Origin: an uncultured Bacteroidia bacterium
Lineage (GTDB): Bacteria; Bacteroidota; Bacteroidia; Bacteroidales; UBA932
Assembly: GCA_902785785.1 (NCBI GenBank)
Contig: CADAAA010000006.1
Span: forward strand, 38,867-102,866
Direction of reading: 5' to 3'
DNA length: 64,000 bases
Both the position numbers and the translations under genes were made by a program. The notes under the pieces were generated by a model that had not been told where the DNA came from, made no database searches, and worked only from the letters and a program-made list of their open reading frames with translations. Positions 18,467 through 53,793 of this stretch are shown piece by piece; within the stretch, counting starts at the first letter, position 1, and every line of letters begins with the position of its first letter.

Positions 18467-18550
18467 GTAGACGGTCCAAACCATGGACCGTCAAGAGCAT
18501 TTTAGCCCGTTTTTGCTTCCGACGGTCCAAAGTTTGGACCGTCGGAAGCA
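18467..18550 (-). repeat. REP-like doublet family A, orphan copy 1 (reverse orientation)
   Basis: GACGGTCCA-aacca-TGGACCGTC (18470-18492) and TGCTTCCGACGGTCCA-aagtt-TGGACCGTCGGAAGCA (18514-18550); centres 51 bp apart. Confidence 0.9.
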
Positions 18551-24108: not shown

Positions 24109-24192
24109 GTAGACGGTCCATAGTTTGGACCGTCTATAGCAAAAACGCCCCAAAATGACGTAGACGGTCCAAGTCTTGGACCGTCTACAGCA
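24109..24192 (+). repeat. REP-like doublet family A, orphan copy 2
   Basis: GTAGACGGTCCA-tagtt-TGGACCGTCTA, linker TAGCAAAAACGCCCCAAAATGAC, GTAGACGGTCCA-agtct-TGGACCGTCTACAGCA; 51 bp spacing. Confidence 0.92.
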
Positions 24193-27479: not shown

Positions 27480-28049
27480 ATGAAAAAGACAGTCAATGCC
27501 GGTATCGGCGGAAGGAACTTTACCCTCGACGAGGACGCCTACAGCCGTCTGGAAGGGTATCTCAAGCTGTTCAGGACACATCTCAAGGACGTGCCCGTAG
27601 AGGAAGTCATGGATGACCTTGAGTCACGCATAGCTGAGCTGTTCACCGAGAAGGTCGGCTCGGGATCACGGGTTGTGGACATCAATCTCGTGGAAGAAGT
27701 CATCAACCAGCTGGGCATGCCGGACGGCAGCGAAGTGCCGGGCGGCGCCGCGGCGGGCGCGCCGAAGGGCGCTGCGGCCGCGCCGCCGCGCAAGCTCTTC
27801 CGCGACCCCGAGAACGCCCGCATCGCCGGCGTCTGCGCCGGACTCGCCCAGTATTTCGACGTCGACATCACGCTGGTGCGCGTACTGATGCTGGTCGCCC
27901 TGTTCGCCGGCTCAGCAGGATTCTGGATCTACGTCATCCTCTGGATCGTCGTTCCCAAGGCCTTGACCCCGGCGCAACAGTGCGAAATGCGCGGCATCTC
28001 CCCCACCGCGGAGAACCTCGCCAAATTCACCCTTAAAAACAAGAAGTGA
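27480..28049 (+). CDS. PspC domain-containing protein (short)
   Basis: MKKTVNAGIGG..F.LDEDAY N-domain; KLFRDPENARIAGVCAGLAQYF PspC motif. Confidence 0.88.
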   Translation: MKKTVNAGIGGRNFTLDEDAYSRLEGYLKLFRTHLKDVPVEEVMDDLESRIAELFTEKVGSGSRVVDINLVEEVINQLGMPDGSEVPGGAAAGAPKGAAAAPPRKLFRDPENARIAGVCAGLAQYFDVDITLVRVLMLVALFAGSAGFWIYVILWIVVPKALTPAQQCEMRGISPTAENLAKFTLKNKK

Positions 28050-28378: not shown

Positions 28379-29427
28379 AACAGATAGAAAGAGTCAGCAT
28401 AGGGGGATACGCTTTCTCCCTTGAAAAAGAGGCCGCGCAGGCAGTAGCCGCTTATCTGAAGGATATGACGGCATACTATCCCAATCCCGAGATCGTCGAA
28501 GGTATCGAAGAGAGGATGGCCGAACTCCTGCTCGAAAGGACGCCTTCGGACGGAGTCGTCACACTGTCCTCCGTCCAGGAGATAATGGACATACTAGGCC
28601 GCCCGGAAAAGATAGAGGAGGAAGAACCCGAGCGCTCCACTCCGGAAGAGAAGCCGAAGAAAAAACTTTACCGCGACATGGAGAACGCCCGCGTAGCCGG
28701 CGTCTGCAGCGGCCTGGCGAGCTATTTCGATGTAGATCCTGCGGTGTTCAGGATCATTTTCCTGGTACTCTCCCTCGTCGGATTCTTCGGCGGGATCGAC
28801 CACTGGGGACCCGTATTCTCCGTATCGATATCCTTCCCTATCCTCTACCTGATCCTCTGGATGTGCATGCCAGCGGCCCGCACCGCGCGCCAGCGCTGGG
28901 AGCAGAAAGGCGAGGACGGCACGGCCGAGAGCATCCGCCGCTCCATCGAGAGCGGCGCGGCCGAGCTAGGCGCGGCGGCCGAGAGGATCGGCAAGTCCCC
29001 CGCCTGGGGAGGCCTCGGCCGCGCCGTCGAGCTGATAATCGGCCTGATCCTCCTCATCGTGTCCGTGTCCGGACTCTTCACCTGCGGACTGGGGCTGTTC
29101 GGATGGGAATGGCTTGGATTCAAGACCACCGTAGACCGCCTGATCGCGGAGATATCCTACGAACTGCCTCAGTTCACGAACATCATCGAGACTCCCTGGG
29201 TCATGTATCTCGCAATCGTCGTCTGCATACTCCCCTTCCTCGGAATGCTCTACGGCAGCATCATGATGATCTTCCATTTCAAGTCACCCTCATGGCATCC
29301 GGGACTGGTGATCTTCATCCTCTGGCTGATTGCCGTAGTTGCCCTGGCGATACTGGTCATCGCCTGCGGCTTCTCCGCCGACCAGCAGCATATCGTCGTG
29401 ACGGGAGACAGATACCTTTCACTATAA
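28375..29427 (+). CDS. PspC domain-containing membrane protein (long)
   Basis: KKLYRDMENARVAGVCSGLASYF; additional TM helices. Confidence 0.88.
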   Translation: MKQIERVSIGGYAFSLEKEAAQAVAAYLKDMTAYYPNPEIVEGIEERMAELLLERTPSDGVVTLSSVQEIMDILGRPEKIEEEEPERSTPEEKPKKKLYRDMENARVAGVCSGLASYFDVDPAVFRIIFLVLSLVGFFGGIDHWGPVFSVSISFPILYLILWMCMPAARTARQRWEQKGEDGTAESIRRSIESGAAELGAAAERIGKSPAWGGLGRAVELIIGLILLIVSVSGLFTCGLGLFGWEWLGFKTTVDRLIAEISYELPQFTNIIETPWVMYLAIVVCILPFLGMLYGSIMMIFHFKSPSWHPGLVIFILWLIAVVALAILVIACGFSADQQHIVVTGDRYLSL

Positions 29428-29514
29428 ACATGGGCTTGAGCTTGAGCCTGGGCTTGGCCCTGGCCGTTTGGAGAACAGCTGCACCAAATCATCAGGCTCC
29501 ACCCCCTATCATGT

Positions 29515-29643
29515 AAGCACAAAACCTCTCGTTTTGTGCTTTTTTTACGCTAAACAGGTCGGAATAAGCACATTTCCTCAGTATTTGTTCTTATTTCAAT
29601 GGACTTTGGCTCATTTAAGCACAAAAGAGGCAGAGCTGTGCTT
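29515..29643. repeat. Dyad array family B, upstream (3 units, 51 bp period)
   Basis: AAGCACA-N13-TGT(G/T)CTT starting at 29515, 29566 and 29617. Confidence 0.85.
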
Positions 29644-29715
29644 TGAAATTCAAAAAAGGGGGGGGGTAGCAGGCAGAAAAGTATGAATTGATAAGCCTCC
29701 TTGCCAGAAGCATGA

Positions 29716-29723
29716 TATCTTTG
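29716..29723 (+). promoter_or_regulatory. Bacteroidota -7 promoter element for the HUH gene
   Basis: TATCTTTG about 25 bp upstream of the ATG at 29748. Confidence 0.6.
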
Positions 29724-29747
29724 CCTTGGACATAACTTCAAGGAAAC

Positions 29748-30701
29748 ATGAAAAACTTTAGTTTTGAGCAAAAGGAAAAGGAACGGATCTCCTTTCATGA
29801 AGCAGAGACGGTTTGTGAATACCGTTTCTCGCAATCAGGCAAATGCTGGCATCTGTATACGCCTGAAGATTTTGAGATTATCTTTTCTGATGATGACGAC
29901 TTCCGGGCTGGCATGACCATTCTCGCACTTTGCGCACTGTCGTTTCCCGGAATCAGGATATTCACTTTCGAATGGATGAACAACCATCTCCATGTTACGC
30001 TTGCTGGTGATAGGGCGGAGATTGATTCCTTTTTCAAAATTCTGAAAGACATACTGGGAAGGTATCTTAAGAACAAGGGAAGGACGGTTTCTCTCAATTC
30101 CTGGAGCTATGGGTTACGCGCTGTCAATGACCTGAGGGATATGAGAAGCGTAATCGCCTACAACAACCGGAACGGCTTCCTCATCAACGAATCAGAAACG
30201 CCCTTTACCTATCCCTGGGGTGCTAACCGATTCTTTTTCAACAGATACGCTTTCGCGGAACATGAGCGCAGCACGGAAAGATTGAGAATCCGTGATGTCT
30301 GGAAAGAGTTCCATACGCGTGCCTTCGACAAGTTCTCCGGTCTTGTGATGCTGGACGGATATGTTTCTCCTCTGGAGTGTTGTCATGTCAGTGAAGCGGA
30401 AGGCCTGTTCCGCAACGCACATCAGTATTTCCATTCCGTCTCCAGGGATATGGATGCACAAAGACGGATATCCAAAGAGATCGGGGACAGGATCACTTAT
30501 ACGGATAATGAGATGTACAGCGCCGTAGCAGAACTATGTCGAACGACTTATAGTGTCACCGCACCGGCACTCCTGCCCAAAGAGGCTAAGGTCGAGGTCG
30601 CCAGAAAGATGCACTTCGACTATAATGCAAGTGAAAAGCAAATCGCACGGATCCTCAGGGTTGACCCCGGACTCGTTCCCTCGCTGCTGGCGCGGAAATA
30701 A
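29748..30701 (+). mobile_element. HUH/Y1 tyrosine transposase-like gene (RAYT/TnpA-REP-like) with C-terminal helical/HTH extension; cognate of family B arrays
   Basis: IFSDDDDF, MNNHLH (HUH), AYNNRN (catalytic Tyr), TYPWG; paralog of 52730-53590; visibly lower GC than neighbours. Confidence 0.85.
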
Positions 30702-30710
30702 GCCTCGGCC

Positions 30711-30892
30711 AAGCACAAAAAACGGGCTTTTGTGCTCCCACGGCTGTTTATATACTCGGAAAAAGCACATAATGTGCGGTTTCGTGCTTATTTCTCTTAA
30801 TCTGAGTCAAAATAAGAACAAAATAGGGCAATCTGTTCCTATTTTGAGGAGAAACTGCCAAAAAAAAGAACAAATCAGGCAGTTCTGTGCTT
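30711..30892. repeat. Dyad array family B, downstream (4 units, 51-52 bp period)
   Basis: AAG(C/A)ACA-N13-(T/C)GT(G/T)C(T/C)(T/C) starting at 30711, 30763, 30814 and 30866. Confidence 0.85.
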
Positions 30893-30977
30893 AAGGGATG
30901 CGGTGAGACGGCCCGGGACAAGATGTCGGGCTTCCGAGGGCCAGCGGAAGGAAGCTGGTCCAGGCAGGGAAGAGAGG

Positions 30978-31997
30978 CTAGTCCTCGTCGGGCCAGCCGG
31001 GGGAACGGAGGGGGAGCTCGACGCCGTCGGGGGTGACGAGGACCGTACCGGCTTCAGGCTGCGCCAGGTGGCCGATGATGTCGAAGGTCTGGAACTCGCG
31101 GCGGAACTTCTCCAGAGACAGGATGGGCACGGCGAAGAGCAGCCTGAAGTCGTCCCCGCCGTTCATGGCGGCGGAGAACGTGTCGATGCCTATCTCCTTG
31201 CCGAGCTGGAAGGAATTGCCTTCGAAGGGAATCTTGTCGGCGTAGACCTTGGCGCCGAGGCCGGTGTCGCGGGAGAGCCGCTTGACGGCGTCCGCGAGGC
31301 CGCGGGTAACGAAGTACCCGGCCGAGGGGACGATCTCCGCGGCCTCGAGCTGCGCGACCGTGGCGGCGCCTAGCTCGGGCTTGAGGTACGCCGCGACGAG
31401 CATGCGATACTGCGAGAGCGCTTTCTCGCGCTCGGCGTGGTCGGCCTCGCCGGCGTCGAAGCGCCGGCGTTCGCGCTCCAGCGCCTGCATTCCGAGGAAT
31501 GCTGCGCCGAGCGACCCGCTCACGCAGAGCAGGTCCTTGGACTTGGGCGCGGGGCGCCGCCTGGCTGTGAGCAGCGCGGTCTCGCCAACGGCGGACACGC
31601 TGATGCACAGCCCGTTGCGCGACGGCGCCAGGTCGAGGTCGACCTGTTTGTAGCCGTGCTCCTTGGCCGCCGCGACGATGCCTTCCCAGAGCTCGCGCAC
31701 CTGCGCGAAATCCAGCTTGGCGGAAACGCCCAGCCGGACGCTGAGCGCCGCAGGGTGCGCCATCTGCGCATACAGTTCACCCGTCACGCCGACGACGCTC
31801 TTGTATCCGAGATGCTTCAAAGGGAAATACACGAGGTCGAAGTCAATGCCTTCAAGCATCACTTTCGACGCATACGCGATGTATTCGCGCCCGGTAGCCT
31901 CGAAGCTGTTGTGTCCGAATGCCTCGAACGGGGTTCCTTCGTAAAGCGCCTTGACGGCCTCTACCCGGCCAAGGTCCGAAAAGTCCTTTCCTGCCAT
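30978..31997 (-). CDS. ThiL-like (thiamine-monophosphate kinase fold) protein, probably catalytically degenerate
   Basis: LEGIDFDLVYFPLKHLGYKS, DLLCVSGSLGAA, NGGDDFRLLF match ThiL, but the GDD, TD and DxSD motifs are substituted. Confidence 0.75.
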   Translation of the reverse strand: MAGKDFSDLGRVEAVKALYEGTPFEAFGHNSFEATGREYIAYASKVMLEGIDFDLVYFPLKHLGYKSVVGVTGELYAQMAHPAALSVRLGVSAKLDFAQVRELWEGIVAAAKEHGYKQVDLDLAPSRNGLCISVSAVGETALLTARRRPAPKSKDLLCVSGSLGAAFLGMQALERERRRFDAGEADHAEREKALSQYRMLVAAYLKPELGAATVAQLEAAEIVPSAGYFVTRGLADAVKRLSRDTGLGAKVYADKIPFEGNSFQLGKEIGIDTFSAAMNGGDDFRLLFAVPILSLEKFRREFQTFDIIGHLAQPEAGTVLVTPDGVELPLRSPGWPDED

Positions 31998-52589: not shown

Positions 52590-52677
52590 TGCTGTAGACG
52601 GTCCAAAGATTGGACCGTCTACAGCAAAAACGCCCCAGAATGACGTAGACGGTCCAGCCCTTGGACCGTCTACGTCA
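52590..52677 (+). repeat. REP-like doublet family A, copy 3 (3-prime flank of the HUH gene)
   Basis: TGCTGTAGACGGTCCA-aagat-TGGACCGTCTACAGCA and TGACGTAGACGGTCCA-gccct-TGGACCGTCTACGTCA; two perfect 16 bp stems with centres 51 bp apart. Confidence 0.95.
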
Positions 52678-52729: not shown

Positions 52730-53590
52730 TTACCAACCGTCAAGCATCCGGGCGGCCTCTTCATAAGGGATACCGGTCACACGGCAGATTTGGTTGAGGT
52801 CCGCACTGAAACGGCGTCCGAGCTGCCGAAGCAACTCTGTTTTCTGCTCCACGCCCAAGTCTGAGATCCTGTTCGACCTAAATAAAGAGTGACACAGATC
52901 CTCGCTTGCCGAAAGGATATTCTGATCCCTGAAAGACGGAGCCGCTCCTCCTTCAAGCCTTTGACGGGCTTTGGAAGATGTCCTGAGGAAGTATCCCAAC
53001 CGCTTCGGGGTCCGGAACAGGGCTTCTACGCCCTTCACCTGTACGTAGGATTCCGGCAGGATATACCCTCCCGATCCTATCTTATAGTCTCCAGGAAGCA
53101 TGACATTGCTTTTCAGCATCCGCATCTGAGCCCTTCCAGAAAACTCCCCCAAACACCTCCCCGGGAAAGGGTTGTCATTAAAAAACACGTTCCCTGTCCC
53201 CCAAGGATAGCCGGAAGGCTCGAAACAGATGTTCGCTGCCACGCTGTTCATCAATACGTAGGCAATGGCCCTCTCAAGGGACTCGTCGCTGTCATTTACC
53301 TCCCTGATATCCACTCCGTTACGGCGCAGGAGCTCGTTTACTCCATATTTCCTGTAGAAATAAGAGGCATACAGGCGCTTGAACGTGTTAATGAACAGTT
53401 CCGCATCCTCACGGCTGCATGCAAGCACGAAATGGACATGGTTGGACATAAGGATGAATGCCAGAACCATTACTCCGGACAAAAAGGCTGCGACAGCCAC
53501 ATAGTTCATCGCCACGCGGAAGTCTTCCCCGTCCCGGAACCACAGGCGGTCTTCCAGATGCTCCGTCGTAATCAAGTAATAGTGTTTCAT
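52730..53590 (-). mobile_element. HUH/Y1 tyrosine transposase-like gene (RAYT/TnpA-REP-like) with C-terminal HTH-like extension; cognate of family A doublets
   Basis: WFRDGEDF, MSNHVH (HUH), AYVLMN (catalytic Tyr), GYPWG; no TnpB partner; no terminal IRs/TSD recognised. Confidence 0.88.
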
Positions 53591-53700: not shown

Positions 53701-53793
53701 AATGACATAGACGGTCCAGCAATTGGACCGTCTACAGCAAAAACGCCCCGAAATGACGTAGACGGTCCAGTCTGTGGACCGTCTACGTCATTT
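53701..53793 (+). repeat. REP-like doublet family A, copy 4 (5-prime flank of the HUH gene)
   Basis: TAGACGGTCCA-gcaat-TGGACCGTCTA and AAATGACGTAGACGGTCCA-gtctg-TGGACCGTCTACGTCATTT; 51 bp spacing. Confidence 0.95.

Follow-up and report, generated by a model that had tools for sequence, protein, structure and literature searches.

Why is a single bacterial gene enclosed by two arrays of short palindromes that follow one another every 51 or 52 nucleotides (nt)? The question arises from a 64,000-nt stretch of an uncultured bacterium of the Bacteroidales (UBA932; contig CADAAA010000006.1), the whole of which we call the window, in which seven palindromic units, here termed family B, flank a gene for a protein of 317 amino acids (aa), three of them upstream and four downstream. 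An earlier description of this DNA, the sequence-only reading, took the units to be phased half-sites on double-stranded DNA rather than hairpins and assigned them to autoregulation or synapsis by the enclosed protein, in a mode confined to this gene, as opposed to a second, spreading family of perfect hairpins, family A. We consider it probable that the seven units are instead the gene-proximal members of a dispersed family cognate to the enclosed gene, which is RAYT-like and carries an HUH motif and a tyrosine, and that the locus is a REPtron, the arrangement in which a RAYT (TnpA-REP) gene is flanked by REP or BIME repeats (PMC3333891, PMC6006769, PMC8266576). The features of the locus are:

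29515–29541, no strand: B unit 1, AAGCACA-N13-TGTGCTT, an 11-base-pair (bp) stem followed by a T-run (−10.6 kcal/mol, z −7.1)
29566–29592, no strand: B unit 2, mixed arms AAGCACA and TGTTCTT with C opposite T, not hairpin-competent (−1.0 kcal/mol)
29617–29643, no strand: B unit 3, 7-nt arms perfect, 13-nt spacer unpaired (−4.8 kcal/mol, z −0.9)
29716–29723, forward strand: TATCTTTG, matching the −7 promoter motif of the Bacteroidota, TAnnTTTG, and located between upstream array and gene
29748–30701, forward strand: the 317-aa HUH/Tyr (Y1) RAYT-like gene, with an N-terminal nuclease domain (H80/H82, Tyr138) and a helical C-terminal domain that has a helix-turn-helix (HTH)-like end
30711–30737, no strand: B unit 4, 10 nt past the stop codon, 9-bp stem (−7.5 kcal/mol, z −3.4)
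30763–30789, no strand: B unit 5, right arm CGTGCTT (pattern match and folding)
30814–30840, no strand: B unit 6, AAGAACA...TGTTCCT (pattern match, folding and comparison with the related genome RUG470)
30866–30892, no strand: B unit 7, mixed arms AAGAACA and TGTGCTT with A opposite G (pattern match and folding)

The units themselves are as they had been described. A search of the window with AAGMACA-N13-TGTKCTT, allowing up to two mismatches, recovered all seven with their exact 13-nt spacer and no further copy, so that orphan B units are indeed missing from the rest of the window; 0.39 matches were expected in the shuffled window, and seven were reached in none of 100 shuffles. The unlike half-sites of units 2 and 7 are both real. 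Successive units start 51 and 51 nt apart upstream of the gene and 52, 51 and 52 nt apart downstream of it, and the linkers between them measure 24–25 nt and are unique, as had been claimed, with pairwise identities of 21–46%. Tandem Repeats Finder did not pick up the B arrays of the window, and a scan of 29000–31400 against Rfam matched no family.

The N-terminal half of the protein between the arrays is, by its predicted structure, a Y1 HUH nuclease with the HUH motif and the tyrosine intact. We base this assignment on Foldseek comparisons of an AlphaFold model, built on a 53-sequence alignment of the protein and its relatives (pLDDT 90.3), with the PDB: the model matched the E. coli RAYT in complex with a REP hairpin (4er8_A) with a probability of 1.00 and a target-normalised TM-score of 0.61 over 145 columns, as well as dozens of chains of the ISDra2, IS608 and IS200 TnpA proteins (2xm3, 2vjv and 2f4f, all with a probability of 1.00). 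The HUH motif reads NHLHVTL, and H80, H82 and Y138 are invariant in the 53 sequences. Sequence searches of the PDB with the protein yielded nothing under an E-value of 0.4.

The C-terminal half, modelled on its own, reached a pLDDT of 84. Its end produced weak Foldseek matches to proteins of the HTH type, with DnaA on top (E 0.21), followed by sigma region 4 and DeoR, all of them non-significant (E 0.2–1). When the domain was compared with domain IV of the DnaA of the same genome, hhalign aligned the expected stretch with a non-significant E-value of 0.15 and a probability of 0.4%, and none of the 53 relatives reached the Pfam family Bac_DnaA_C. The resemblance to DnaA domain IV is suggestive only. 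The protein belongs to a large family. A word-indexed search found at least 260 relatives, a few of which are labelled “REP element-mobilizing transposase RayT” by JGI, and an exhaustive search yielded 897 clusters (50% identity) at E ≤ 1e-10, nearly all of 300–320 aa. The named relatives come from metagenome-assembled genomes of rumen and gut Bacteroidales, including Candidatus Cryptobacteroides, the closest being that of RUG470 with 97% identity.

Outside the window, family B is widely dispersed. In the host assembly (2.36 Mb, 12 contigs), the pattern occurs 39 times with at most one mismatch, as opposed to zero occurrences of a reversed control pattern, and when units are called by their phase they add up to 48 in 14 arrays, with the consensus aAGCACAaaa...tttTGTGCTt. 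Only two of these arrays (7 units) flank the gene, whereas the other 12 (41 units) lie away from it, on contigs C1, C3, C5, C7, C9 and C11. Convincing solitary B units were absent from the genome, the real units all standing in arrays of 2–7. The view that these are private operators confined to this gene is thus wrong for this genome, and the proposed contrast between a confined family B and a spreading family A did not survive the count, family A being present in only 12 doublets.

This distribution also bears on the operator idea, which is unsupported. The motif match TATCTTTG lies 24 nt before the ATG at 29748, so that the upstream array does precede a promoter motif, as had been noted, and TAnnTTTG was found between upstream array and gene in 25 of 56 homologous loci, as against 12 of 336 control windows. 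Yet the nearest unit, ending at 29643, stops 72 nt upstream of this −7 box and does not overlap the promoter. This gap, the four units past the stop codon and the 41 of 48 units at other loci, mostly at the 3′ ends of genes, together make a poor fit to a usual operator.

By our own gene calls, which are crude, 20 of 49 arrays from all families are located between convergent genes, 17 between genes in tandem and 6 between divergent genes, while 6 are apparently inside open reading frames (ORFs). The latter probably represent spurious reading frames across repeats that stay in frame, because 51 nt correspond to 17 codons, and arrays with this period are a likely source of spurious annotated “repeat proteins”. 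Outside the window, long, GC-rich arrays of 51-nt units that are open in one frame gave rise to false long ORFs in our gene calls at G000:C10:39607-40196, G000:C9:24990-25222 and G000:C11:40371-40703, the labels giving genome, contig and positions.

Family B is not the only palindrome with a gene of its own. The genome contains nine paralogues of the 317-aa protein. Six of them lie between two arrays of a palindrome specific to the gene, and each of these palindromes recurs at other places in the genome; six is a lower bound for paralogues flanked in this way. The palindromes that define the families are:

Family A: GTAGACGGTCCA-N5, perfect hairpins
Family B: AAGCACA-N13, the family of the seven local units
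Family C: CTGAACA-N13, period 50
Family D: GCGCACG-N13
Family E: GTGCTC-N15-GAGCAC
Family F: GTGCGG-type

The gene cognate to family A lies in the same window:

52590–52677, no strand: doublet of family A next to the paralogous gene, its two perfect hairpins separated by 51 nt, in the same register as family B
52730–53590, reverse strand: paralogous HUH/Y1 gene, cognate to family A (28% identical to the B gene, E 1e-24)
53708–53793, no strand: second family A doublet flanking the paralogue, again 51 nt apart (palindrome search)

Two of the 12 family A doublets in the genome stand beside this gene, and in every doublet the hairpins, with perfect stems of 16–19 bp, are exactly 51 nt apart. The contrast in architecture that had been drawn between families A and B therefore does not hold. 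Two further doublets in the window are located at 18467–18550 and 24109–24192; in the doublets, stems and linker are conserved while the 3–5-nt loops are all different.

In some arrays outside the window two families are combined. The composite 51-nt unit consists of a B-type (GAGCACA-N13-TGTKCTT) and an E-type (GTGCTC-N15-GAGCAC) palindrome with one common arm, and the two types fill a single lattice without free linker (G000:C5:178615-178750, G000:C5:180656-180886, G000:C3:149576-151040).

The register is the property that all families share. Genome-wide, identical palindromes with 6-nt arms are separated by 51 nt in 138 cases, by 50 nt in 39, by 52 nt in 7 and by 102 nt in 81, and every other distance between 20 and 120 nt is represented by eight pairs or fewer. 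The common geometry comprises arms of about 7 nt located 8–14 nt from the dyad, in units spaced 50–52 nt apart. Within family B, 30 of 34 junctions measure 51 nt and the other four 52 nt. The linker has a length of 24–25 nt in all 34 junctions, but its sequence is random between arrays: the median identity is 58% within arrays and 29%, the random level, between them. Neutral diverged DNA would be expected to gather insertions and deletions. That linker length is nevertheless held throughout counts in favour of the half-site view.

Is this geometry also found beyond this genome? The sequence-only reading had been staked beforehand on the conservation of spacer length in homologous loci, and it came through well on this point. 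Among 80 homologous loci fetched from other Bacteroidales, a flanking palindrome family could be defined in 43. Their arm sequences are all different, and still both the arm spacing and the 50–52-nt period are kept: a conserved pair is present at distances from 14 down to 8 nt from the dyad in 21, 33, 42, 40, 43, 42 and 35 of the 43 families, whereas conserved pairs within 4 nt of the dyad occur in 7 or fewer, and the period, available for 41 loci, is 51 nt in 33, 50 nt in 4 and 52 nt in 4. The arms are the same in orthologues with 97% identity and already differ at 78% protein identity. The notion of phased half-sites thus stands for the constant distance between the 7-nt arms and for the strict register of the units, but not for the role as duplex operators.

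An association of palindrome and protein over this range is difficult to reconcile with a purely cellular function of the arrays, as terminators, hairpins that stabilise mRNA or sites for nucleoid proteins, for which the connection to the HUH gene would be incidental or secondary. Unit 29515, with its 11-bp stem and T-run, looks like an intrinsic terminator of the upstream gene, arrays are enriched between convergent genes, and runs of A and T surround several of the orphan B units, as we call those away from the gene. However, each family brackets its own paralogous gene, the arm sequence varies with the protein across the 43 loci, and B units are abundant only where a B-type protein is present. 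Arrays of up to 14 units moreover exceed what termination needs. We regard such a host function as very improbable.

We therefore return to the REPtron. Cognate palindromes are found on both sides of the gene here, at five other paralogues and at 43 homologous loci, and the same palindromes are dispersed in intergenic DNA, for family B in 12 further arrays with 41 units. A plausible course of events is that the protein would recognise the arms by sequence and would nick and rejoin the folded single strand, by analogy to RAYT and the IS200/IS605 enzymes. The strict register may then reflect the constraint of a multi-protein complex on neighbouring units, and the local units could be older, partly decayed copies, with no separate confined mode. 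The system is an undescribed Bacteroidales subclass of the REP/RAYT type with the phased palindrome lattice as its hallmark; none of the open-access papers found in our search describes palindromes arrayed head to tail in a register conserved at about 51 nt.

Several observations weigh against this interpretation. On the side of the protein, Pfam gave no match at E ≤ 1 and NCBIfam no relevant one, and Y1_Tnp (PF01797) was touched weakly by 9 of the 53 relatives, with a best E-value of 0.004; the family A paralogue scored 15.2 bits against it, with a cut-off of 23. The consensus at Y138 is VIAYNNRNGF, in which the tyrosine is followed by N-R-N and not by NP, whereas class 2 Y1 enzymes carry the motif YxxxNP (PMC6006769). 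On the side of the DNA, the tags GTAG and CGTC are absent from the family B consensus (GTAG is present in family A, within the stem), roughly one B unit in two folds poorly as a hairpin, and the excess of pairing between the B arms, described below, is weak, small enough to come from relatedness without structure. The combination of fixed linker length and random linker sequence is left unexplained by the classical REP model. Finally, cleavage, binding and transposition are predicted activities.

To what extent, then, are the B units hairpins at all? Folded as single-stranded DNA (ssDNA), only 29515 and 30711 of the seven local units were better than shuffles, the spacers being mostly without pairing; the other five reached −1.0 to −4.8 kcal/mol, and the hairpins of family A −19 to −20 kcal/mol. 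Orphan B units mostly have stems extended to 10–11 bp. Of the 41, 33 fold best as the dyad hairpin, and 22 have folding energies of −6 kcal/mol or better. Several of them are bordered by A-runs and T-runs. The claim that the units are not hairpins agrees with the poor folding of five of the seven local units, but is countered by the orphan copies and by the fold of the protein, which is that of enzymes acting on ssDNA. That orphan copies fold better than gene-flanking ones as a general rule had to be dropped, the difference being significant in family C (p 2e-5) and not in B (p 0.11) or D.

The pattern of substitutions gives a similarly mixed answer. Departures from the arm consensus affect a single arm far more often than they are compensated in the other (64 versus 13 in family B, 115 versus 14 in C, 35 versus 7 in D). 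Position 4 of the B arms is C-G in 34 units, A-T in 7 and mixed in 15, with C or A on the left and G or T on the right being nearly independent. A formal covariation test on 43 B units found 78.0% of positions paired, a value reached by 2 of 500 shuffles, versus 74.6% in the shuffles. The single-arm changes in family B that yield wobbles comprise 18 G-T and 17 A-C, so neither strand stands out, and the units lack an orientation of their own. In several families the spacer contains conserved tracts that are not complementary.

Much of this would be expected if the units were phased duplex sites, bound by a dimer of the protein through its C-terminal domain for autoregulation or synapsis and with no role as ssDNA hairpins. 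Conserved arms around a free spacer, the preponderance of single-arm changes, the poor folding of five of the seven local units, the non-complementary tracts and the HTH-like matches of the C-terminal end, which resemble DnaA, sigma region 4 and DeoR, are all compatible with it, and so are the distances, with arm centres about 20 bp (about two helical turns) and units 51 bp (about five turns) apart, and the linkers, fixed in length and random in sequence. The HTH matches are, however, the non-significant ones described above, the invariant catalytic HUH and tyrosine residues argue for ssDNA chemistry, and family A has perfect hairpins of 16–19 bp on the same register. Together with the distance from the promoter, the units beyond the stop codon and the many units at other genes, this makes an exclusively duplex function unlikely in our view.

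The two views are not mutually exclusive, since the stem of a folded strand and a duplex half-site are the same 7-bp duplex. Folded ssDNA hairpins are known to be bound and cut by enzymes of this fold (PMC8266576), and, judging from the arms, one sequence-reading domain could bind both the folded strand and the duplex. We tentatively consider a combination in which the protein, beside its HUH catalysis on ssDNA, might bind duplex half-sites and polymerise along the array into a higher-order complex. The 50–52-nt register might then, as one less favoured option, be measured by the protein and not be an accident of inheritance. It is conceivable, with the same reservation, that arms spaced by about two helical turns and units by about five would be combined with A/T tracts that bend the centre. 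Possible though doubtful roles of such a complex include synapsis of the flanking arrays, the structuring of the chromosome or a barrier to replication forks or transcription, and HUH chemistry would perhaps, again speculatively, set in only once the DNA becomes single-stranded. If true, a mode of duplex binding would be new to the described REP/RAYT systems.

How the arrays arise is indicated by comparisons within and between genomes. The adjacent B units C1:441229 and C1:441280 are identical across their full 51 nt, and other families have arrays of up to 14 near-identical units, often of two alternating subtypes with a 102-nt period. These identical neighbours, the similarity of linkers within arrays and the alternating 102-nt subtypes indicate that units of 51 or 102 nt are duplicated in tandem and that the arrays grow in this way. 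A ruler mechanism that lays down new units was considered and rejected, the direct evidence being for tandem duplication of whole units.

The same observations bear on the possibility of a CRISPR-like or other RNA-producing array, which the regular period, the palindromic arms and the unique linkers in the window might bring to mind. Here, however, the supposed “repeat” varies in its own centre, linkers in many arrays are related by duplication, the arrays are many and small (2–7 units), Rfam has no match, and the adjoining conserved gene is that of an HUH nuclease and not a cas gene. We rejected this candidate on the variable repeat centre, the duplicated linkers and the neighbouring HUH enzyme, and consider it next to negligible.

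Between species, the counts of B units differ: this genome has 39 and RUG470, whose protein is the one with 97% identity, has 32, but 24 congeners have 0–6 (control pattern 0–2). RUG470 has an orthologue of the downstream array that differs by point changes in single arms; here, as in the body of the gene and the flank that follows it, identity is 95.6%. When window positions 29300–29790 were compared with L013:1027-1512, the start of the gene (~12 codons), its promoter region and the array upstream of it proved to be replaced or far more diverged, with 82% identity in the far flank, and this suggests a recombination boundary inside the cassette. At the site of an intergenic three-unit B array, the flanks are 87–96% identical in RUG470, where the DNA between them is unrelated and has no B array. 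There, at L095:1890-2330, the orthologue of G000:C1:273700-274000, RUG470 carries the palindrome GCGGCAGATGCG...CGCATCTGCCG, which belongs to the family that flanks another paralogue in this genome (G000:C1:216759). By these comparisons, arrays come and go within the time that separates closely related species.

Within the known diversity of such systems, the locus resembles the REPtrons, such as E. coli YafM/RayT (4er8), in the Y1 HUH fold with intact HUH and tyrosine, in the low-copy gene between palindromes of its own that are dispersed in intergenic DNA, mostly at the 3′ ends of genes, and in the co-variation of repeat and protein, with several gene–repeat pairs per genome. It differs in the protein, which is twice as long (~310 aa), with a helical C-terminal half that is conserved, does not reach the thresholds of Pfam and NCBIfam and has the tyrosine motif AYNNRNG in place of YxxxNP. 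It also differs in the repeats, those of family B lacking the GTAG tag and having short arms with 13 nt between them that often remain unpaired; moreover, REPs are singletons or inverted pairs (REPINs), whereas the units described here are always head-to-tail with a period of 50–52 nt.

Two subclasses of Y1 enzymes come closer in certain respects. Subclass 2.1, or TIRYT, combines Y1 with a C-terminal DnaA-like (Bac_DnaA_C) or HTH extension and is associated with terminal inverted repeats or with no REPs (PMC3733652, PMC6006769). Our family likewise has a Y1 domain, with an HUH motif of the NH[VLY]H type, followed by a helical, possibly HTH-containing extension; unlike TIRYT it has phased arrays, and its DnaA-like signal is non-significant. 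Subclass 2.6 (RAYT group 5) is mostly from Bacteroidetes, with proteins of ~179 aa, the motif YIH[QN]NP, a recognisable Y1_Tnp domain and “atypical secondary structures”; no 51-nt register is described for it in that survey (PMC6006769). It shares with our family the phylum, the flanking atypical structures and the copies elsewhere in the genome, but our proteins are longer, have another tyrosine motif and remain under the Pfam threshold.

As to the arrays, the BIME-2 elements of E. coli are tandem clusters of REPs with fixed-length linkers, alternating orientation and conserved linker motifs. The tandem reiteration and the fixed linker length are common to both, but in our case single palindromes follow each other in one register and the linker sequence is free. 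The centromere sopC of the F plasmid has 12 tandem 43-bp repeats, each with a 7-bp inverted repeat bound by SopB. This parallel, phased tandem repeats with short inverted repeats suited to cooperative duplex binding, is an analogy only: sopC is a single locus in which the whole unit is conserved, and the protein family here is unrelated.

Knowledge of REP/RAYT systems is almost wholly proteobacterial and concerns hairpins, single or in inverted pairs, that are recognised in the folded single strand. The large and almost unannotated family described here, mostly from gut and rumen Bacteroidales, shows another design, with short arms, a free centre and a 50–52-nt register that is kept while the sequences of arm, spacer and linker turn over completely. 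At least six protein–palindrome pairs in one genome of 2.36 Mb form a natural test set for the co-evolution of specificity and for cross-reaction, and the conserved register poses the testable question of whether a Y1 HUH enzyme is also a phased binder of duplex DNA. In practical terms, the arrays break metagenome assemblies and yield false ORFs, and their annotation would help.

Two minor features of the region remain to be mentioned. At 29652–29666, past the upstream array and ahead of the promoter motif, a run of six A is followed by nine G (AAAAAAGGGGGGGGG). This tract could be prone to slippage or could be an artefact of assembly; in the RUG470 orthologue the sequence at this position is unrelated. 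Further upstream, a 74-nt stretch occurs twice (27792–27865 and 28663–28736, 76% identity) within two adjacent ORFs. It is unrelated to the arrays and, translating to a motif of the type ...NARIAGVCAGLAQYFDV..., probably marks two paralogous domains.

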